A stretch of DNA of 64,000 nt from Spirochaetia bacterium (lineage in GTDB: Bacteria; Spirochaetota; Spirochaetia; CADAEX01): contig CAXXHA010000016.1 in assembly GCA_963662265.2 (NCBI GenBank), positions 21,516-85,515 of the forward strand. The letters run 5' to 3'. Both the position numbers and the translations under genes were made by a program. The notes beneath the pieces are model-generated. The model saw only the letters and a list, made by a program, of their open reading frames with translations. It was not told the origin of the DNA and made no database searches. This document shows, piece by piece, positions 48,742 through 64,000 of the stretch. Every line of letters starts with the position of its first letter. Within the stretch, counting starts at the first letter, position 1.

Positions 48742-49977
48742 ATGAGAAACCGTAAAGTATTTCTTGTTTATACAATTCTAATATTTATAACTATTTTCTA
48801 TATGATAACATTTCCCTCATACCGCTTTATGGACAAGCTTTATAAAAAAACAGATGAGCTTAACAAGCTTTATGAGAACTGGCTTCATATGAGAGCTGAA
48901 GTAACTCTGTATCTTTCTTCTGAAAAAAAAGAAAAAGATAAAAACCGGTTTATCGATTCTGTAACAGTATTTGACATATCATTTGAATATCTGATTGATG
49001 AAGATATATATCAGATAATTGAAAAAAAAGAACCTGATATGAGAGACAGCAGGATGCTTCTTGTTCAAAGCTGGCAGAATATCCAGTTTGAACTGGTTAA
49101 AATAATCCAGGAAGAGGGGAGCATAGAATCCTTTGCTGAACATGTCAGCGGATTTATGAATGATACAGAACGCTTTGAAAAGAATCTGAAAAAGATAATT
49201 CAAAAAGCAAATAATTACCGTAAAAACGGATACAGGCTCAACCTGTTCATACTGTATTTTTTCAGCATTGTTGTTCTTTTTCTGTATACAGTTACCATTA
49301 TAGAATATTTTCAGACAGAAAAAGCCAAGAGATCAGAAAAAGAGATAAGGAAACTTTCTGAAACACTGATTTCTGTGAGGGAAAACGAAAGGAAAAGAAT
49401 AGCTCTTGATATTCATGATACCCTTGTCCAGAAACTGGGAAAAATAAAAACAGACCTGGTGAAAATCAATGATTGCAGGGTGATTGAGGAAGAAATTGTA
49501 GAAACAATTGCAATAGCGAGGAGTATTTCATATAACTTAAGACCTATTGAAATAAGGGAGGAATTTTTTTCTTCTCTTGATCATTATCTGACAGATCTTT
49601 CGTTTCAGTACAATTTTAAAATCAGCAAGACAATCATAGGGTTCGGTAAAATTAAATTAAAAGAAGAGTTCCAGATAAATCTGTTCAGAATTGTTCAGGA
49701 AATTTTTCAGAATATTATTAAACATTCCGGTGCTGATAAGGTGAAATTCAAACTGATATTTTCATATCCCTATATTCTTCTGACTGTTTCTGATAATGGG
49801 GCTGGATTTGATTACTATCCTCTAAAATGGAAGAAGGATAAGTTGTCATCAGAACATATGGGCATTACCGGAATATATGAGAGGGTGAGACTCTTTGCAG
49901 GAGAAGTTAAAATCAAGAGCAATAAAGGGGAAGGCACTCTTGTAAAAATCAAATTACCATATAGAGGATTTAAGTAA
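48742..49977 (+). CDS. HisKA_3-type sensor histidine kinase
   Basis: Two TM; ENERKRIALDIHD; FRIVQE..NIIKHS; DNGAGF; HMGITGIYER. Confidence 0.9.
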   Translation: MRNRKVFLVYTILIFITIFYMITFPSYRFMDKLYKKTDELNKLYENWLHMRAEVTLYLSSEKKEKDKNRFIDSVTVFDISFEYLIDEDIYQIIEKKEPDMRDSRMLLVQSWQNIQFELVKIIQEEGSIESFAEHVSGFMNDTERFEKNLKKIIQKANNYRKNGYRLNLFILYFFSIVVLFLYTVTIIEYFQTEKAKRSEKEIRKLSETLISVRENERKRIALDIHDTLVQKLGKIKTDLVKINDCRVIEEEIVETIAIARSISYNLRPIEIREEFFSSLDHYLTDLSFQYNFKISKTIIGFGKIKLKEEFQINLFRIVQEIFQNIIKHSGADKVKFKLIFSYPYILLTVSDNGAGFDYYPLKWKKDKLSSEHMGITGIYERVRLFAGEVKIKSNKGEGTLVKIKLPYRGFK

Positions 49978-50630
49978 TGATTAACAATATCCTGCTTGTT
50001 GATGATCATCCGTCAGTCAGGGAAGGTTATAAAACAATTATCAGCAGAAACAGCCTTGCACAAAATATCCATGAAACAGGAACGTTCAATGATGGTTATC
50101 AGAAAGCTCTCTCTGTTAAACCGGAGTTGATTCTGATGGATATCTCGCTGCATGGGAAATCCGGGATAGAACTTTTAAAAAAAATTCTGAAAATACAGCC
50201 TGAAATTAAAATAATTATGGTCAGTATGTATTCAAAGACACATTATATTGTGAGTTCTCTTGAAGCAGGAGCAAAAGGGTATGTTCTAAAAGAATCCAGA
50301 CCTGAAAAAATAGTAAAATGCATAAAAAGTGTTTTAAAAAATGAAATATATGTGGATAGTCATATAAGCGGAAAAGTGATAAGCCGTCTCCTTGCTGGAA
50401 ATGACGATGATATAGTCATGGGCGAATCCTATGAATCATTGACTTTCAGGGAACAGGAGATCCTGAGACTTCTTGCAGAAGGTCTCAGCTGCAAGGAAAT
50501 TGCTGATCAGCTTTGTATCAGTGAGAAAACTGCAATTAACCACAGAACAAATATAATGACAAAACTCTCCTGCAATAACATGGTTGAATTAATCAAATAT
50601 GCGATTCACATTGGTCTGATCGAAATTTAG
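49977..50630 (+). CDS. NarL/LuxR response regulator
   Basis: LVDDH, LMDISL, GAKGYVLK, LTFREQEIL..HRTNIMTKL. Confidence 0.93.
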   Translation: MINNILLVDDHPSVREGYKTIISRNSLAQNIHETGTFNDGYQKALSVKPELILMDISLHGKSGIELLKKILKIQPEIKIIMVSMYSKTHYIVSSLEAGAKGYVLKESRPEKIVKCIKSVLKNEIYVDSHISGKVISRLLAGNDDDIVMGESYESLTFREQEILRLLAEGLSCKEIADQLCISEKTAINHRTNIMTKLSCNNMVELIKYAIHIGLIEI

Positions 50631-50741
50631 TTACACTGATAGGAATATCTCCTGAAACAGGAATGTAAATGAAAAATCTTCCCATATATTTACCACGGAT
50701 CCGGATTTACTATTAATCAAGAAAAATTTTAGGAGAGAATT

Positions 50742-51722
50742 ATGAAAAAGAAAATTTTATTAAGTTTAATGTGTCTTTTCATGTTAGGCAGCTTTTCTTT
50801 TGCAAGTGGATCAGGTGAAAAATCAGATCAATCAAAGAAATCAGAAAGGAAATTTGTTCAGATTAAGTCCTCATCAATCGGAGGATCCTGGTATGCTGCC
50901 GGGGCTGCATGGGCTAAAGTAATTTCTGATAACAGTGATTATATAGCAATGAACAGCGCATCTCCCGGATACACAAATGAAAGTGTTACACGAATGCTGG
51001 AAGGTAAAGCCCAGCTGGCATGCGCGGATGGTATAGCTGCATTCCCTGCATATAGCGGTAAAGGGAAATGGGAAAACCCTGTTGAAATACGGGCACTGTT
51101 TAATCTCTGGCCGGGTGTATATGACATGGTTGTTATGGAGGATTCTGAATTCAAGACTCTGTCAGACCTCAAGGGAAAGAAAATTGCCACATATGCCGAG
51201 GGGGAACCTACCGGTCTTGCATTCCTCGATTTAATGAAATGGGCGGGAATTACACCTGAAAATACAACAATATTCAGAGTAACTAAAAAGGATGCGACAA
51301 GAATGTTTATCGACGGAAGCGCCGATTGTCTTGTTTATGCTTTCGGACATGGACATGCAAATCTCAAGGAAATAACAAGTACAAGAGATGTCAGGTTTAT
51401 ACATGTACCTGAGGACCTTGAAAAACGGTTTATGAAGGAATATCCCTATTTCACAACAACTATATTCGGATCTGAGTTTGGTGTTGAGGATGTGAAACAG
51501 TTTTCATCTCCGTATTTTACAATTGCACTCGCGGAAATGTCTGACGAAGATGCTTATCTTTTTACAAAGCTGTGGTGGGAGAACTGGGATTTTCTCGAAG
51601 ATGCTATTCCCGCATATGTTAAATGGGTTGACAAGAAAAATGTAACTGATGGAATTCCGATACCGTTCCACCCGGGAGCAATAAAATATTATAAAGAAAT
51701 CGGTGTCTGGAAGGAGCAGTAA
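50742..51722 (+). CDS. TAXI-family TRAP solute-binding protein
   Basis: Signal peptide; SSSIGGSWY; SDLKGKK; PIPFHPGAIKYYKEIG. Confidence 0.88.
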   Translation: MKKKILLSLMCLFMLGSFSFASGSGEKSDQSKKSERKFVQIKSSSIGGSWYAAGAAWAKVISDNSDYIAMNSASPGYTNESVTRMLEGKAQLACADGIAAFPAYSGKGKWENPVEIRALFNLWPGVYDMVVMEDSEFKTLSDLKGKKIATYAEGEPTGLAFLDLMKWAGITPENTTIFRVTKKDATRMFIDGSADCLVYAFGHGHANLKEITSTRDVRFIHVPEDLEKRFMKEYPYFTTTIFGSEFGVEDVKQFSSPYFTIALAEMSDEDAYLFTKLWWENWDFLEDAIPAYVKWVDKKNVTDGIPIPFHPGAIKYYKEIGVWKEQ

Positions 51723-53669
51723 ATGTCAGTGTCTCATGATCCAGATCTTGAAAAAGAAATGGGCATTAATATATACAACGATGATGATTTTAAAGGAATC
51801 ACAGCATTCGTTAAACACAGCTGGATCAAGAAAGTATTATTTGTAATGGGACTTGTTGCTGTTGGTGTGCCAATTTTTGAAGTATTCTTCTATTCGCTGG
51901 CTCCTTCCATACAGCGGCCAATACATCTGTTTTTCATGTATTCAATAGTCTTTATTATGTATCCTTCAAATATTATAAAAAACGGAAAGATCGAGAGTCT
52001 TGCCAATATATTTCTGATTATTCTAACGTTAGCTGTTTCAATTTGGGCCTGGTTAAGATGGGTGCCGCTTTTAATTGATCCTTCTGCGGAATTCTATGAA
52101 GTTATTTTAATGTTTGTTCTCATTTTTCTCACATTTGAGGCGACAAGGCGTACTATTGGCAGCGCGATGGGAATAATTTCATTAATATTTTTAATCTATG
52201 CTTTCATTGGACCCTATATGCCCCGTTTTTTTGCACATGCCGGCTTTTCTCCCTATGAACTTGTTACACATATCGGGATTGGAACTGAAGGGATGCTTGG
52301 GGATTTACTGGCTATCGGATGTACTCAGATTGTGTTTTTCATGATGTTTGCCGCATTCCTCAAAATTTCAGATGCAACAACCCTTTTCATGGATTTGTCA
52401 AAGGCTATCGCAGGGCACAGAATTGGTGGGCCTGCTAAAGTAGCTGTTGTATCAAGCGGTTTTATGGCAATGCTTTCAGGCAGCGCCAGCGGGAATACAG
52501 CAACAACAGGCTCTGTAACAATTCCTTTGATGGTATCAATGGGGTTCAAGAAACGGATGGCTGCAGCTATTGAAGCAACTTCCTCTACTGCAGGACAGTT
52601 TATGCCCCCCATAATGGGAGCTGCTGCATTTGTAATTGCTGAATATACCGGCAATACCTACTGGGCAGTTTGTATAGCAGCGTTTCTTCCCTCATTCCTT
52701 TATTACGCTCTTATGTTCTTTACTGTCGATATAAGGAGTAAAAAGGCAGGGATGTCAGGTCTTTCGAAGGATGAATTGCCTTCACTTAAAAACTCGGTTA
52801 TAGAAGCTTTGCCTATGATCCTTCCTGTTGGTACACTTGTTATTCTTCTGTCGATGCAGTTCAGTATTCAGTATGGAATTCTGATGTCTCTCGTTGTTCT
52901 TGTTATTTCTCTTATTCCATTCAGGAAGAGGAGAATGACACCAACCAGGATATTGAAAGCAATTGCATTGACTTCTAAAATACTGATCCCTATAACTGTC
53001 TCCTGTGCAAGCGCCGGGTTGATAGTCGGGGTCATGTCTCTGACAGGATTCGGAGAAAGACTTGCTTATGGTATTCAGGCAATAGCAAACGGAAATTTAT
53101 TTATAGGATTAAGCGTTACTGCTTTTATCTGCGTAATACTCGGTATGGGACTGCCTACACTTGCAGCTTACGTAGTTCTTGCTTCTCTCGGTGTCCCTGC
53201 TCTCGTACATCTTGGAGCACCGCTGCTTGCCGCACATCTTTTTGTTTTCTATTTTGCTATTCTTTCAACACTTACTCCTCCTGTTGCCCTGTCTGCGTAT
53301 GTGGCTGCAGGCATAGCCGGGGCAAATCCGATGAAAACAGCATTTACAGCTGTTCAGATTGCTCCGTTTATCTATGCGCTGCCGTTTTTCTTTGTTTTCT
53401 TTCCCGGTCTGTTGCTTAATGCTCCTTTACTGACTGTTGTAAAGGATATTTTCGTTTTTGTACTTTTCATGCTTCCGTTTATTGTTTTATCCGGAAGATA
53501 CTGGCTGACCCGGTTAAATATTATTGAAATGTTTTTATTCGCATTGGCCCCGTTAAGCTTTTTTGTTTTCAGAGACCATTACATGGTGTCTATGGTGGTT
53601 TTCAACGGACTGGCGACAATAATTCATGCTTCAAGAAATATTAAAAATAAAAAAGAGGTTTTTAAATGA
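51723..53669 (+). CDS. TRAP transporter fused 4TM/12TM permease
   Basis: GGPAKVAVVSS, SGSASGNTATTG, AIEATSSTAGQFMPPIMGAAAF, LGMGLPT, TPPVA. Confidence 0.92.
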   Translation: MSVSHDPDLEKEMGINIYNDDDFKGITAFVKHSWIKKVLFVMGLVAVGVPIFEVFFYSLAPSIQRPIHLFFMYSIVFIMYPSNIIKNGKIESLANIFLIILTLAVSIWAWLRWVPLLIDPSAEFYEVILMFVLIFLTFEATRRTIGSAMGIISLIFLIYAFIGPYMPRFFAHAGFSPYELVTHIGIGTEGMLGDLLAIGCTQIVFFMMFAAFLKISDATTLFMDLSKAIAGHRIGGPAKVAVVSSGFMAMLSGSASGNTATTGSVTIPLMVSMGFKKRMAAAIEATSSTAGQFMPPIMGAAAFVIAEYTGNTYWAVCIAAFLPSFLYYALMFFTVDIRSKKAGMSGLSKDELPSLKNSVIEALPMILPVGTLVILLSMQFSIQYGILMSLVVLVISLIPFRKRRMTPTRILKAIALTSKILIPITVSCASAGLIVGVMSLTGFGERLAYGIQAIANGNLFIGLSVTAFICVILGMGLPTLAAYVVLASLGVPALVHLGAPLLAAHLFVFYFAILSTLTPPVALSAYVAAGIAGANPMKTAFTAVQIAPFIYALPFFFVFFPGLLLNAPLLTVVKDIFVFVLFMLPFIVLSGRYWLTRLNIIEMFLFALAPLSFFVFRDHYMVSMVVFNGLATIIHASRNIKNKKEVFK

Positions 53670-54037
53670 TAAGAAAAAATATTATGTTTTTGGTTATTCT
53701 TTTTGTATTGTTATCTGTTTCTCCATTATTTGCTGATGATGGACATATGATATCTCCAACAGTTGAATTAAAGAAAGTCTCTATTTATCAGAAAGCTGCC
53801 ACAAAAGGTGGAGGAAAACTGATAAACACATTTTTTGATATAACAATAAAAAATATATCAAACGAATCTAAACAATACAGTGTTCAGGTTGTTACTGGAA
53901 AGGATGCGATGGAAAATTTTTTCCCGGCAAAGGAAGGACAGGTTATTGAAGCTGGCGAGGAGATGACAGCTTCGCTTTCTGTTCTGAAATCCGAATTCCC
54001 TAATGACTTTATGTTAATTATTGAACCGGTGAATTAA
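53666..54037 (+). CDS. Small exported hypothetical protein
   Basis: Signal peptide ending PLFA; beta-rich; overlaps the TRAP permease stop. Confidence 0.7.
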   Translation: MIRKNIMFLVILFVLLSVSPLFADDGHMISPTVELKKVSIYQKAATKGGGKLINTFFDITIKNISNESKQYSVQVVTGKDAMENFFPAKEGQVIEAGEEMTASLSVLKSEFPNDFMLIIEPVN

Positions 54038-57649: not shown

Positions 57650-57681
57650 GCAGTCTCCTTTTTCGGGGGACTGCTTTTTTT
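57650..57681 (+). terminator. Rho-independent terminator
   Basis: GCAGTCTCC/GGGGACTGC followed by T7. Confidence 0.75.
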
Positions 57682-57971
57682 ATTAATTTAAGCTGCAGAT
57701 TATTAAATAGTAAAACATATTACAAGAATGCATAGAGCCGTAAAAATCGAATGCCAATTAAGGATAACTCTTATAACACTGCTGGTAATGGATCCCTGAT
57801 AATTCTATATTAAGAGTTATTAATCAATAATGCTGAATTATGTGATATACTGCTGGACAAAATAGTTGTTTAGTATTTATTCATAGTAAGTTTTTAGCTT
57901 AATTTGGGAAAATATTGTCACCTTTATTAAATGGAATATATAATTTCATGTTTAATAAAACCGGAGATTGA

Positions 57972-59052
57972 ATGAAAGCTGTTCTTTATTTCTTATTGAT
58001 TATTATTTTTATCACCCACACTGCTGCCGGAGGATTGTCAGAAAAATATAAAAATACAATAAATGAGGATTCAGAAAAAAAGGATCTGGTTGTCTACAGT
58101 ACGATATTTTCAAAATATGCCGAGATGATGAAAGCGGAATTCGAAGAAAAATATCCCGGGGTAACTGTTCATGTTATAAATCCCGGCGGTACTGAAGCGA
58201 TGATAAAAAAGCTGGAATCCGAAAAAAACAATCCAAGGGCTGATGTTATTCATTCCGGTTCAACTCTCAATTACGCTTCTGCTGTTGAGCTTGACCTGAT
58301 TGAACCGTATGTTCCCCGGGCAGAAAGGTTTGAACCGGCTATAAAAATCCATGACAGTACTCTGTTGCTCAGCCACCCTGAAAATTATTATCATGTCTGG
58401 TCACTGATGTTTTCCGGAATCATGTACAATTCAGAAGTTGTAAAAAATAATAATTTTTTACTGCCGGTTTCATATAAAGATCTTACAAATCCTTCATATA
58501 AAGGCTATATAATTTCTGCAAATCCCTTAAAGTCATCTACAGCCTTTACCAATGTTATGGCTGTTTTTGATGCATATGGAAATGATGGCTGGAAAATCTG
58601 GGATAAAATTAATGATAATATTCTGTATTACTCCAATTCATCTTCAAAAATATATACACTTACAAACAAACGGGAATTTGCATTTGCAATATGTCTCTCT
58701 CGTCCTGTTTTCATATCAAAAAGAAAAGGTTATTCCGTGGATTTCATTTTTCCGTCAGAAGGAAGTATGGTTGTTGATAACGCTATTGCTCTCGTGAAAA
58801 ACGGAGAAAATCCTGAATACGGGAAAAAAATTCATTGATTTTATATTAAGTGATCATATGCAGAAACTTGGCGCTGAATTTCTTTATATCCCGGTTAAAA
58901 AGGGAGTTGTAGATCCTTCGGCCGAATATTCTCTCGAAAGCATATCGTCAAAAGTAAGCCGGATCATTCTGCCTGATAATAATATTACTCCTGAAAGGAA
59001 AAACAAACTGAAAGAGGTTTTCGGCCGATACGCATGGGATAAAACCAGATAA
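57972..59052 (+). CDS. ABC substrate-binding protein (Fe3+/polyamine/phosphonate class), +1 frameshift in the A run near 58827
   Basis: LVVYS, EKNNPRADV, SYKDLTNPSYKG, NPLKSSTA, FPSEG; tail FIDFILS..MQK in the next frame. Confidence 0.85.
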
Positions 59053-59139
59053 GAATATACTGCATTAAATATTTTAGATTACAGAAGAAAGGAGCATCTG
59101 TATTTCCGCTGATAACTCATATGCCGGATACAGTGAAAC

Positions 59140-60230
59140 ATGAAGCACATAATAATTAAAGACCTTGTGAAAAAATACAGTAACCAAACTGTTTATTGAT
59201 AATATCAATATGGAAATAAACCGCGGTGAAATGGTTTCACTGCTTGGCCCTTCAGGATGCGGAAAGACAACCCTGCTGCGGACTATTGCCGGGTTTGAAA
59301 AGATTTCATCGGGTGACATTATTTTCAATGATAAAGTAGTGAATAACATTAAACCGAATGAAAGAAACGTCAGTATTGTTTTTCAGGATTATGCAGTCTT
59401 CCCGACAATGACTGTTTTCGCAAATGTTGCCTACGGACTTAAAGTGAAAGGAACTCCGAAATCTGAAATATTTGAGAAGGTTATGTATTATCTTGAACTT
59501 GTGGGGCTTGAAGGCTATGACAATACAATGCCTTCAAAACTTTCAGGTGGACAACTACAGCGGGTGGCACTTGCAAGAGCTCTTGCAACAGATCCTGATG
59601 TTCTTCTGCTTGATGAGCCGCTTTCAAATCTTGATGCTGCCCTCAGATTGAAAATCAGGCAGGAAATACGCAAGATACAGAAGAAACTTGGAATTACCGC
59701 AATATTTGTCACACATGACCAGGAGGAAGCTCTTTCGGTTTCCGACAGAATTTATGTAATGAACCAGGGAAAGATAATGCAGGAAGGTTCTCCTTCAAGT
59801 CTCTATCAGTACCCTGAGAATGATTTTGTCGCGGGATTTATCGGAAGGTCCAACATTCTTTACGGTAAAAGTTGAAGGGCGGGATGGAGAATATATAAAT
59901 GTTTCTATCAGAGACAGGATTCTGAAAATATCAGCCGTTAAAGACTGTTTTAAAGTGGGGCAGGATTTATGGCTTTCTATACGGCCGCAGTATGTGCGAA
60001 TCGGTACTGATGATGACAGCTTGAACTGTCAATATGGTAAAGTCAGATATTTTGAATATCTGGGTCCGGTTATCAAGGGAGAGGTTGATTTGTTTGATGA
60101 TATCACACTCAATTTTGAATTATATAATACTGAACGGAATTTTCCTTCATGTATTATTGATGAAGAAATAGCCTATGCAATTAATCCCTCAGATATTTAC
60201 TGCGGAAACAATATTGTTGGAATCAGTTAA
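59140..60230 (+). CDS. ABC ATP-binding protein (PotA/FbpC type), two +1 frameshifts
   Basis: ATG 59140 MKHIIIKDLVKKY; GPSGCGKTT, LSGGQLQRVALARAL, LLDEPLSNLDA, THDQEEA; TOBE-like tail in the next frame. Confidence 0.88.
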
Positions 60231-60317
60231 GTCCTGTGTATTTATTCTGTTTCAAAGTTTTAATTTGTTTATATCTCTTACCTGTTTTGCGGGTTTTCAG
60301 GAAGTGAATAGGGAAAA

Positions 60318-62070
60318 ATGATGATTAATCTTAAAAAAACTGCTGCGAGTTCCGGATTTTCTTTACTGAATATCCTGTATGCTGCAGGAATAATATATAT
60401 AATTGTTTTTTTTCATTATTCCTGTCGGGAATCTTTTCCTGAGAGGAATAATGGTACTGGTGAATACTGAAATCCCGCTGCCTGCTACTTTTCCTGTATA
60501 TATGCTTAAAGTTACCAGGAATACACTGATGCTTGGACTGCTTACAACTTTCTGGTCACTTTTAATTGCAGTTCCAGTTTCAATATTAATTGTAAAATTC
60601 AATATCCGGTTTGTAGGTTTCTGGACAGCATTAATGACTGTGCCCATGATAACTCCGCCATTGATAACAAGCTTTGCTGTTATAATACTTCTTGGACGGA
60701 GCGGTATTATAACATTGCTTTTGCGGCGTATCGGAATTGAAATCCCTTCGATTTACGGGCTGAATGGTCTTCTGATAACGCAGATACTTCATACTGTACC
60801 GTATGCAGTATTGATACTGATTGCCGGGCTTAAAGGTATTCCGCGTCATCTGGAAGAAGCTGCTTTTTCAATGGGCTCCTCTGTGCTGAGTATCCAGTTA
60901 TCTGTAGTAATTCCATATATAATGCCGCATATTCTTATGTCAGGACTGATGGTTTTTCTCTCTTCAATAGGGGATATCGGAAGCCCTCTTTTAATTGGAG
61001 GCAACTTCAATGTCCTTTCACTTTCGATTTATTCCAATTATATCTCATTTATGGATGATGAAAGAATTCCTATTATACTTAGCCTCTGGATAATTCTTCT
61101 TTCATTTATTATCCTGAATATTGTTAACAGGGTATTTCAGATAACAAATAAAAGATACCGTATTGGATATGACACAATGGTGTATGATAACCCGTTGGTC
61201 AGGAAATGCTCTTATATTATAATTTCAATCCTGTCTGCCCTGTTCCTGCTTCCAAACTGTATTGTTCTCATACATTCATTTGCCGAGACATGGATCAACA
61301 GGCTTCTGCCTTCTGAACTGACTTTTAATAATTATGAAGCTGTTTTTATAAATAATGATTCTGTTATTAATACCCTGATTCTTTCTGCCATTGCTGTTCC
61401 TATCATGATTATTCTTGGGTTGATCCTCAGTTATATGTTCAGGAAAATAAACAGACTCAAGTGGCTTAATTATATTACTCTTGTCCCTTTTATTCTTCCG
61501 GGTGTAGTTATAGCAATAAGTCTTCTAAAGACTTTTGCAGATGTTCCTTTTCCGGGCGACAGTTTTACTTCATCGTTTACTATTCTGGTTATAGCTGTTT
61601 CTGTGAGACGGCTTCCATATGTAATTAAAACACTTGAAGCGGGTTTCTGTAAAATAGACAGGAAGCAGGAGGAAATTGCAGCTGGATTCGGAGCAGATGA
61701 TTTAAGTGTTTTTTTTACAATCCTGTTTCCCCAGATGAAGCCTTTTCTTTTTTCTGCTCTTTTCATAGCAACTGTAAAGGTTTTTACAGAACTTGCCAGT
61801 TCCCTTATCATAAATCCTCCCGGATGGAAAACTTTATCTGTTTATATTGCATATTATGTGGAAGAGGGGCATATATCCCGTGCCGCAGCCATGGGTGTTG
61901 TCCTGGTTCTGATAGTACTGTCAGGCTCTGCTTTTTCAAAGTTTTTTTCAGGAAAAAGCTCCGGCAAACTTGAGGTTTCGGGACAGACAGAAAACTGGGA
62001 AAGTGTAATCCTCGGAAAGGTTTTGAAATCAAAACCCGGTACAGAAAACAATATTTATCAGACCGGATAA
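60318..62070 (+). CDS. FbpB-type double ABC permease (probably continues into the PAS/kinase region)
   Basis: ATG 60318 with +1 shift at T8 60406-13; two EAA loops (LEEAAFSMGS, QEEIAAGFGA). Confidence 0.85.
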
Positions 62071-62102
62071 TAAAGATATACAGAGTTATAAACAGTTTTT
62101 TT

Positions 62103-63047
62103 AATATAACAATTTTCAAGAGGGCTTCAATAACAGTAAACCGGGACGGAAAAATAATTAATGCCAGTAATGATTTTCTGGATCTTATAAATGCAGTCAG
62201 TTTTGAACATCTGAAAAATGCAGCATGTCTTTATAATCTTCTTCCTGTAAAGAATGATTTAAGCAACCTTTTTTATTATAAAAAAAGCATAATGGACAAA
62301 TCCACATTTCTTTTCAATCTGCAGGGACAGAGGCTGCCTGTCAATATCTCTCTTCATCTGAGATCTGCTGAAGATGAAAAAAGACAGGTTGTTGATATTT
62401 TTATCACTCCTGAAAAAAGGAATAAGATGCAGCTGAGGGAATATGAAAGACTGAAAGCTCTTGCTGATGAAGCTGAACTTAAGGCACTTAAAGCACAGAT
62501 TAATCCCCATTTTTTCTTTAATACATTGAACAGCATTGTTGAGCTTATAGAAACAGAACCGGAAAAGGCTGTTTCTGTTACAGAAAACCTGGCAGAACTT
62601 TTCCGTTTCACTCTTATGTCAACTCAGAAAGACAGGATTTTACTATCCGAGGAAATAGATCATGTTAAAGAATATTTATCCATATACAAAGTAAGGTTCG
62701 GAGACAGGTTGAATTATGATATAAAGGTCAGCAGCAAGGCATCTGTCTGCGGTATTCCTCCCATGCTGATACAGCCTCTGGTTGAAAATGCAATATATCA
62801 CGGCAATGATGATAAGGGGAATATAGATTTATCTGTTTATGTCTGGATGGAGAGTCATGTTATCTTTATCAAAGTATCTGACAAGGGTTCCTCAGCTTTG
62901 AGGTATTCTGATCTGTTTTCAGGAAAAGGTACAGGGCTTGCAAATGTTGAAAAACGTCTTCAGGCATTGTTTAACCACGGGCTGATATTTGAAGAAAACA
63001 ACCCCTGCGGACTGTCAATTACAATTAAAATACCGGAAGGAAAATAA
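62103..63047 (+). CDS. PAS + LytS-type histidine kinase domain lacking its own start codon and TM region
   Basis: Frame open from 61974; ITVNRDGKIINASNDF (PAS-like); ALKAQINPHFFFNTLN, IQPLVENAIYHG, GTGLANV; first ATG only at 62292. Confidence 0.8.
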   Translation, partial: NITIFKRASITVNRDGKIINASNDFLDLINAVSFEHLKNAACLYNLLPVKNDLSNLFYYKKSIMDKSTFLFNLQGQRLPVNISLHLRSAEDEKRQVVDIFITPEKRNKMQLREYERLKALADEAELKALKAQINPHFFFNTLNSIVELIETEPEKAVSVTENLAELFRFTLMSTQKDRILLSEEIDHVKEYLSIYKVRFGDRLNYDIKVSSKASVCGIPPMLIQPLVENAIYHGNDDKGNIDLSVYVWMESHVIFIKVSDKGSSALRYSDLFSGKGTGLANVEKRLQALFNHGLIFEENNPCGLSITIKIPEGK

Positions 63048-63812
63048 TGGGCTTTAAAACACTTGTAATAGATGATGAAAAACTTTCAAGAAACAGAATT
63101 CTAAAACTTTTATCTGATTATGATGATATAGAAGTTCTTGGCGAAGTTGATAACGGCACTGATGCTGTTGATTCAATAGACAGTCTTCTGCCGGATCTGG
63201 TATTTCTGGATATACAGATGCCTGGTTTGACAGGGTTTCAGGTGCTTGAAAAAATAAAGCATCATCCTGTAATTGTTTTTATAACAGCATATGATGAATA
63301 TGCTGTAAAAGCTTTTGAAGTCAATGCTGTCGATTATCTACTTAAGCCGCTGTCAAGGGAAAGATTCAGCAAGGCCCTGGAGAAAGCATTGTTTCTTATT
63401 GGTGATAATGATGATTCTGAAGCAGGCCGGATTGATTCTCTGCTGGATTATCTGCACTGCAGGGAACAATATCTTGAAAGGATAACTTTCAAGGATAAAT
63501 ATCAGTATGTTGTTGCAGATGTTAATGAAATTGATTTTTTCAGAACTGAAGACAGTCTTGTTTTTCTGTATTTAAACGGCAGAAAACACATGATTGACTT
63601 CACATTGAACAGCCTTGAAGAGCAGCTTGATCCTTCACTTTTTTTTCAGGGTTCATCGTAAAGCTATTGTAAATATAAAAAAAATAAAATCCATAGTAGC
63701 CTGGGGACGAGGGTCATATACAATCAAGTTTCCTGATGGTGAAAATGTTCATATCAGCAGAACCAGGCTGAATAAATTCAAGTCTGTCATGGGATTTAAA
63801 AACCGAGAATAA
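63047..63812 (+). CDS. LytTR-family response regulator, +1 frameshift at T8 near 63643
   Basis: IDDE, FLDIQMP, FITAYDEYA, DYLLKP; FFRVHRKAIVN and ISR in the next frame. Confidence 0.9.
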
Positions 63813-63937
63813 AAACTTCTACACAAATCATGTTGGAGGATTTATTGAAATATCTGTAATAAACGGCTCACGGAAATTTGCTTTTAATCAAACCCTTTTT
63901 TAAAATAATAGTTTTGACATTTGGATAGCGTAAAATC

Positions 63938-63967
63938 ACTGTTCAGCCCCTGTATTCCGCAGTTCAT
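63938..63967 (+). promoter_or_regulatory. LytTR-type direct-repeat binding site
   Basis: ACTGTTCAG-N12-GCAGTTCAT (21-bp period) directly downstream of the LytTR gene. Confidence 0.65.
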
Positions 63968-64000
63968 TAAAATCTTTATTGATTGCAGATTTTTAATACT

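Follow-up and report, generated by a model that had tools for sequence, protein, structure and literature searches.

An ABC importer permease joined to a PAS domain and a LytS-type kinase in Spirochaetia: a putative transporter-derived receptor beside a LytTR regulator

How ATP-binding cassette (ABC) importers inform histidine kinases is still argued for the PstSCAB-PhoR and Bce systems, in which the partners are separate and their contacts transient. Co-sensing by PstSCAB-PhoU-PhoR runs through separate polypeptides, with the state of the transporter controlling the kinase. The state of an ABC transporter also controls the kinase in BceAB-BceS (PMC11109136, PMC9306890), and the ABC-kinase pairs cited in the available parts of a paper on S-components are non-covalent (PMC11109136). 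A transporter membrane domain, a PAS domain and a histidine kinase do occur in one chain in the CbrA/CrbS SLC5-STAC fusions, which serve nutrient control (PMC13022988, PMC9100948, PMC5715377); a 2026 preprint terms CbrA a rare transceptor, and the word ABC is absent from the text available of that preprint (PMC13022988). In the 64,000-nucleotide stretch of a Spirochaetia bacterium analysed here (the window; contig CAXXHA010000016.1), positions 57972-63812 of the + strand hold genes for a solute-binding protein (SBP), an ABC ATPase, a two-repeat permease, a PF06580 kinase and a REC-LytTR regulator, all five of them frameshifted in the assembly. We report that the permease and the kinase are one protein. 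This fusion is real and conserved, and apparently undescribed: a literature search with poor coverage of subscription journals found no paper on a kinase fused to an ABC importer permease, a review of SBP-stimulated kinases (PMC8050422) does not use the word 'fused' in its available portion, and permease and kinase are separate in a paper on Dickeya Vfm.

In the window as given, the permease open reading frame (60403-62070) stops at a TAA at 62068-62070, and that of the kinase, open from 61974, has its first ATG, GTG or TTG only at 62292. The original prediction, made from the letters of the window alone, had noted both points and had described the kinase as lacking a membrane domain of its own; the sequence confirmed the former, and a PF06580 domain with no membrane domain in the kinase frame bore out the latter. 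Contigs from three sequencing runs (X2, X4 and X5, from two studies, X4 and X5 being one sample) cross the junction, and all insert one G behind 62013, so that one base is missing from the window at 62014-62015. This single G places permease and kinase in one frame. The prediction had instead repaired the junction by deleting bases near 62033 and 62096-62102. The contigs omit none there, and the two-deletion reading was rejected because it differs in 26 alignment columns (568-595) from an intact fusion protein, P0383, which belongs to the 90% cluster of the window's two half-proteins and lies on an 854,449-bp contig of an independent assembly. The expected product of about 908 aa was right, P0383 having 908 aa, and the contig-guided reading is identical to P0383 apart from the choice of start Met.

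The same contigs all omit one base at 58824, 59192, 59867, 60406 and 63639. The interval 57900-63900 of the window thus holds six single-base errors in 6 kb (five insertions and one deletion) that break all five genes, and frameshifts of this assembly should be treated as errors until checked. That every error would be a surplus homopolymer base was correct for these five positions and wrong for the junction, where a base is missing. Intact counterparts of the SBP (P0432), ATPase (P0435) and regulator (P0437) lie on a contig equal in length to that of P0383. X2 shows zero substitutions relative to the window and may be the source of its DNA. X4 and X5 show 6, one of which recurs in P0435; since this variant is not in the window, the 854-kb assembly is no mere re-call of the window's. 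X1 is near-identical to the window over three short pieces only and is no evidence of habitat. With these corrections the region reads as follows.

57915-57944, + strand: sigma-70-like operon promoter, TTGTCA-18-TATAAT, 11 of 12 matches, the best site of the region
57972-59052, + strand: SBP, 359 aa, AfuA/P5PA-like; extra base near 58825, read-through identical to intact P0432
59091-59162, + strand: candidate 3'-end scar of a deleted unfused permease gene, overlapping the ATPase start; weak
59140-60230, + strand: ABC ATPase with TOBE tail, 362 aa; catalytic motifs complete, extra bases near 59193 and 59868 (P0435)
60321-63047, + strand: fused gene, 908 aa (P0383), encoding permease, linker, PAS, coiled coil and LytS-type kinase; extra base near 60407, missing base at 62014-62015
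60363-61959, + strand: permease domain, aa 15-546, two BPD_transp_1 repeats with both EAA coupling loops
61960-62117, + strand: cytoplasmic linker, aa 547-599, containing the junction assembly error
62118-62414, + strand: PAS domain, aa 600-698, identified by fold
62418-63044, + strand: coiled coil, His_kinase and ATP-binding domain; His730 at 62508-62510, P-H-F box, N, G1 and G2 boxes
63047-63812, + strand: REC-LytTR response regulator, 254 aa, Asp55; extra base near 63640 (P0437)
63917-63968, + strand: three direct repeats 21 bp apart (two good, one weak), putative regulator binding site

An AlphaFold2 model of P0383 (mean pLDDT 82.5, pTM 0.61) does not place the domains relative to each other with confidence. 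Within it, the membrane domain (aa 15-546) matched FbpB (9j4r_A; Z 30.0, rmsd 3.5, 475 aligned), the PAS domain matched 3olo_B (Z 13.6, rmsd 1.8, 93 aligned), and the kinase matched GanS (6swj; Z 17.1, rmsd 4.5, 179 aligned). The PAS-like segment that had been suspected ahead of the kinase is confirmed by this fold match, Pfam giving no PAS hit. The linker (547-599) was modelled at low confidence as a single long helix. The kinase is of the LytS/BtsS type, having a PF06580 domain with a P-H-F box around His730, the ATP-binding N, G1 and G2 boxes and an adjacent LytTR regulator; the Pfam HATPase_c model gives no hit in the window's protein and reaches its cut-off in the homologue P0021. No Pfam hits to the input domains 5TMR_LYT (PF07694) and GAF were found, the input of the fused protein being ABC permease plus PAS. 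The fused permease keeps two EAA coupling loops, and the cognate ATPase has its Walker A, Q-loop, signature, Walker B, D-loop and H-loop all present. ATPases of kinase-bearing cassettes end in a common G-x-x-I-x-G/R-x-D/E tail that is absent in four kinase-less ones, and this tail may reflect phylogeny or a contact site.

When 439 fetched proteins were scored on permease and kinase profiles, 36 matched both (30 after removal of cluster mates, 23 full length), and the H-box and N-box are kept in all 23 full-length fusions. The covalent permease-PAS-LytS kinase hybrid with a LytTR regulator that had been predicted is thereby upheld by independent contigs, by the intact 908-aa copy and by 22 more full-length homologues. 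The fusions fall into group A, with a PAS domain and a QITPH box; group B, comprising the window's protein, P0001, P0021 and P0408, which is a grade and not a clade; and the PAS-less group C (P0032, P0239, P0240, P0422 and P0423). Named fusion records are labelled Spirochaetales, Spirochaetia or Spirochaetaceae, and the labels of unfused relatives also include Kosmotoga, Treponema, Rectinema and Limnochordales. Because the database label on the fusion proteins is iron(III) permease, the family is easily missed. It is present in 8 of 401 genomes of the class, including the window's own (G000), that is in 7 of the 400 others. It was not found in any of 19 sampled genomes of the same family, two congeners included, nor in 400 genomes drawn across the phylum, G000 being the only carrier of these 401; both figures describe samples, not absence.

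In family trees, which were quick trees, the fused kinase domains group with spirochaete membrane kinases of about 680 aa that carry HAMP and PAS domains (SH-aLRT 95), and these are the likely donor of the fusion's tail. Such kinases (P0002, P0004, P0015 and relatives) combine membrane helices, HAMP, PAS and PF06580 and are the closest to the fused kinases. A different arrangement was seen in P0003, P0008 and P0011, proteins of about 820 aa with two tandem membrane-His_kinase-HATPase units, one of them labelled Salinibacter ruber. One family member (locus L016), itself similar to L026 and to spirochaete copies, lies on a 3-kb contig titled Candidatus Shapirobacteria, and this contig is possibly mis-binned.

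The gene neighbourhoods, examined at 48 loci, show that the fused permease usually has an unfused twin. At 18 loci (15 without near-duplicates) the order is unfused permease, ATPase, fusion, regulator, following the SBP where the contig reaches that far; three error-rich loci share this order and six short loci are compatible with it. L017 is permuted (fusion, regulator, SBP), and about nine loci carry SBP, unfused permease and ATPase with no kinase adjacent. The window's order of SBP, ATPase, fusion and regulator occurs at none of the 48 loci. Over the 66 pairs of 12 cassettes, median identity is 59.7% for the unfused permease, 59.6% for the SBP and 60.3% for the ATPase, compared with 34.1% for the permease domain of the fusion, which is the lower in 65 of the 66 pairs. 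Among 138 near-invariant columns of the unfused permease, only 47 are still so in the fused one, and the losses include polar membrane residues. The trees of the two permeases mirror each other, which indicates one duplication followed by co-inheritance, with root-to-tip lengths of 1.89 (fused) and 0.72 (unfused), an approximately 2.6-fold difference. The fused permease domain has dN/dS values of 0.048, 0.126 and 0.158 in the three unsaturated of five pairs (the other two being saturated), and the fused copy is therefore under purifying selection and not decaying. This is the pattern one would expect of a copy freed from bulk transport that must still fold and dock, and a separate unfused permease beside a faster-evolving fused copy suggests a dedicated receptor rather than a bulk transporter. 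The further prediction that a complete importer is wired to the kinase thus holds at best for the window's organism, since the relatives own an unfused permease and their fused one is a second, faster-evolving copy.

A triple repeat with the consensus CCCGTTCAGC, spaced by 20-22 bp (mostly 21), lies 60-135 bases ahead of the SBP start at every one of the 16 kinase-bearing loci, and none of eight kinase-less loci carries it upstream of the SBP (17-190 of 200 shuffles as high). In a leave-group-out test, no more than 5 of 200 shuffles reached the observed score at 15 of the 16 loci, against 38 at L039. L045, which nests in group C among kinase-bearing loci, has no kinase beside it and no triple repeat. 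The repeat ends directly 5' of a T-rich -35 region, a position matching that of LytTR activators such as AgrA, whose binding sites are a pair of direct repeats ahead of its promoters (PMC4227749). We infer that the LytTR regulator binds the repeat and activates from it. When five genomes were searched for the regulon with a one-mismatch pattern, each yielded 13-19 hits, most of them coding-like, and the outcome was set aside as noise.

In the window the repeat (63917-63968) stands after the regulator and not before the SBP; it scored 17.7 with 0 of 500 shuffles as high, the window being outside the training set, and it closely resembles the L017 site. Next comes a TTGATT hexamer at 63979, and the remainder of the promoter lies, like the target gene, beyond the contig end. 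No LytTR-type repeat was found near the promoter at 57915-57944 (score -18.5; 473 of 500 shuffles as high), which is probably constitutive; in the sigma-70 scan behind this promoter the total number of sites in the region equals chance. An unfused permease was not found in G000 (best paralogue 28%, the fusion being the single family match, in an assembly 90.6% complete), nor among 112 database matches with the length of the intact 854-kb contig, in a search that lists cluster representatives only. The spacer between SBP and ATPase matches the end of the unfused permease gene of the three nearest relatives at 18-19 of 46 bases (p 0.02-0.03 uncorrected), a likeness that is not significant at 31 bases and has p 0.07-0.23 at 61; it is possibly, on weak grounds, the scar of a deleted unfused copy. 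The contig ends 188 bases after the regulator, and at 90.6% completeness the assembly could lack a second importer. Synteny with G001, G002 and G009 gave nothing useful for the sequence past this end, and no G000 contigs overlap it; one X2 contig (record 9) continues for about 7.5 kb past 63900. The window's fusion may accordingly be either a transporter as well, or a stand-alone sensor for the downstream gene past the contig end.

What the SBP binds was approached through its structural relatives. Its nearest solved chains are 8x1a, 6wce and 4r72, with 6lkg also near, and the relatives include AfuA, P5PA and HptA. In sequence alignment, the hydroxyl residues of the AfuA phosphate site (Ser37, Thr60, Ser148 and Thr150) correspond to Thr, Ser, Ser and Thr, and those at the sugar ring are replaced, His205 by Arg (22 of 22), Asp206 by Pro (20 of 22) and Glu229 by a small or hydrophobic residue. 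The latter replacements rule out a hexose-6-phosphate importer. The best NCBIfam matches of all three importer parts are putative 2-aminoethylphosphonate models (PhnS2/U2/T2); the proteins of locus L019 score below the equivalog cut-offs (164/393, 161/593 and 376/458 bits), as does P0001 (124/593). A gene for 6-phosphogluconate dehydrogenase (gnd) directly follows the cassette in L054 and L060 and persists as a remnant in L018, where a truncated gnd start comes right after the ATPase (2800-2890), making 3 of 48 loci; an RpiR/HexR-type regulator lies upstream of the cassette in L054, and a ribulose-phosphate epimerase follows it in L035 and L052. The ligand is probably a small phosphorylated compound, judging from the aligned site. 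The best lead is 6-phosphogluconate or a similar phosphorylated acid, an assignment that we consider doubtful. Separately, L019 (13304-15588) encodes a 510-aa protein with GntR/NanR-like and TAXI solute-binding parts, an odd joining of a DNA-binding domain to a normally periplasmic one, followed by a glycerophosphodiester phosphodiesterase.

We propose, with a probability of roughly 0.58, that fusion, SBP and ATPase form a transporter-derived receptor that sets the kinase, and that the regulator induces its own importer. An AfuB/FbpB-type permease gene was duplicated and one copy gained a PAS-LytS-kinase tail, as the architecture, paralogy and mirrored trees show. The fused copy would assemble with the only SBP and ATPase of the cassette, which is suggested by its retained EAA loops and by the presence of one of each per cassette. 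Docking of the ligand-loaded SBP and the ATP-driven cycle may then shift the last membrane helix, and linker, PAS domain and coiled coil could relay this movement to His730. The kinase would phosphorylate the LytTR regulator, which would bind the triple repeat 5' of the -35 region and induce the operon including the unfused permease for bulk uptake; of this last step the repeat itself is observed. In the window's organism, whose operon lacks an unfused copy, the sensing module is apparently constitutive, and the repeat would drive a gene past the contig end. A more specific version, in which the kinase input is a whole type I ABC importer (SBP, permease and two ATPases), acting in most genomes as a non-transporting twin of the induced importer and in the window as a stand-alone constitutive sensor with another target, has in our estimate a little less than an even chance. 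If true, sensing would cost ATP hydrolysis, and the kinase dimer would have to bring two transporter complexes together.

Several observations weigh against the proposed receptor. At the ligand site, an invariant Glu occupies the position of AfuA Gly38, a poor obvious fit for a doubly anionic ligand; most loci are without gnd, and no catabolic gene conserved beside the cassette was found across the loci. One fusion origin has permease-tree supports of 58 and 7 only and requires three changes on the kinase tree (AU p 0.40), and long branches meet; the trees thus neither establish nor reject one common fusion event. Because the full model served to choose the repeat sites, the leave-out test is somewhat leaky, and a two-site scan of G000 gives at least 25 places that match or exceed the window's site in score. 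The window's fusion is among the slowest-evolving (branch 0.97), keeps 114 of 138 columns of the unfused type and is the sole family member found in G000, and it may itself be the transporter. Against the joined frame itself, X5 alone (depth 2.5) has an extra, frame-breaking T behind 62095, which is seen neither in X4, from the same sample, nor in X2 or P0383.

In one rival explanation the fusion is a full working importer subunit whose flux the kinase reads, the unfused copy of the relatives only adding capacity. This is strongest for the window's organism, where no other permease accompanies the intact SBP and the ATPase with its full set of motifs and where the columns kept include polar membrane residues changed in group A; the transporter domain of CbrA is, moreover, competent for uptake (PMC13022988). 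We consider it unlikely overall, since the relatives keep a separate, slower-evolving permease while their fused copies have lost many near-invariant residues, since the SBP-ATPase-fusion operon of the window is not under the window's repeat, so that a separate target is implied, and since the seemingly absent second importer may simply lie outside an incomplete assembly. That a separate permease and a soluble PAS-kinase were misread as a fusion we regard as having next to no probability. It can draw on the stop in the window and the surplus linker base of X5, against which stand one restoring base in three runs and the intact P0383. A homologue in which a soluble PAS-kinase stands separate was not seen among the 12 short matches examined; those nearest the fusions start within the permease or at the coiled coil, as pieces cut at contig edges would. 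Of the split loci, all three (L020, L053 and L060) are broken in further genes as well.

The sign of the signal could also be reversed as in PstSCAB-PhoR, the kinase being held off by its ligand and the importer switched on by starvation, of phosphorus for instance. Sign is not derivable from sequence, and both the 2-aminoethylphosphonate models as best NCBIfam matches and the phosphate-type site kept in the SBP would suit this arrangement. It nevertheless appears improbable, given that all three NCBIfam scores of the L019 proteins are below cut-off, that BtsS/BtsR induces a carbon-source transporter when its ligand is present (PMC10653868), and that an RpiR/HexR-type regulator controls one kinase-less locus next to gnd. 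Slighter still is the chance that the PAS domain binds the imported compound or a metabolite in the cytoplasm, leaving the permease mainly as an anchor or a local supply. The resemblance of the PAS-kinase tail to the 680-aa membrane kinases, which have an input domain of their own, and the suggestion that the PAS domain of CbrA binds histidine (PMC13022988) speak for it, but group C lacks the PAS domain and yet keeps cassette and repeat, and the entire permease domain is under purifying selection.

Two gene blocks lie upstream in the window. Named from their translations, those at 49977-54037 encode a LuxR-type regulator, a TAXI-like binding protein, a 648-aa TRAP-type permease and a small secreted protein, and a similar block is present in G009 at 65-66% DNA identity. 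Between 54206 and 57624 a MarR regulator is divergent from a kynureninase and an amino-acid permease, unrelated to the cassette, and a terminator at 57650-57674 closes this block.

For kinase-coupled ABC importers the fusion offers a covalent version with a matched unfused paralogue as control, with PAS and PAS-less forms and with a defined promoter repeat, which makes binding and flux sensing directly testable alternatives. With it, the few known bacterial transporter-kinase fusions would come to include ABC importer permeases, and the building of importer-based sensors would gain a scaffold.

Among known systems, UhpABC-UhpT of E. coli pairs the transporter UhpT with its homologue UhpC. The likeness lies in a transporter-like sensor, two-component induction of a transporter and a phosphorylated ligand (PMC4546632), whereas Uhp has the MFS fold, consists of separate polypeptides and uses neither binding protein nor ATPase. 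The input of CbrA is a stand-alone secondary SLC5 symporter; here it is a type I ABC permease needing an SBP and two ATPases, with a PF06580 kinase, a LytTR regulator and usually an adjacent unfused paralogue. The membrane part, with two BPD_transp_1 repeats and the FbpB fold, contains no SLC5 symporter domain, and the comparison with the STAC four-helix bundle extends to linker 547-599 as one long helix of low confidence within the full-length model only. BtsS/BtsR and other LytS/LytTR systems share the PF06580 kinase with its P-H-F box, the LytTR regulator and an induced nutrient transporter, but BtsS senses through 5TMR_LYT and GAF domains (PMC10653868), both absent from the fusion. In HptA-HptS-HptR of Staphylococcus aureus an SBP of the same structural group (6lkg) presents a phosphorylated ligand to a kinase, which docks HptA on a dCache-like domain (PMC8050422), where here the docking surface would be the permease. 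The AfuABC, P5PA and FbpBC (9j4r) importers have the single-chain two-repeat permease fold and a related SBP with a phosphate site (PMC4546632, PMC8427247), without a kinase. In the Bce and Pst systems a working transporter senses through separate polypeptides, whereas the fusion ties permease and kinase covalently, in most cases on a second copy. The fusion is thus a new variant among transporter-kinase transceptors, working like UhpC-UhpT as a sensor twin and built like CbrA, and a member of neither.

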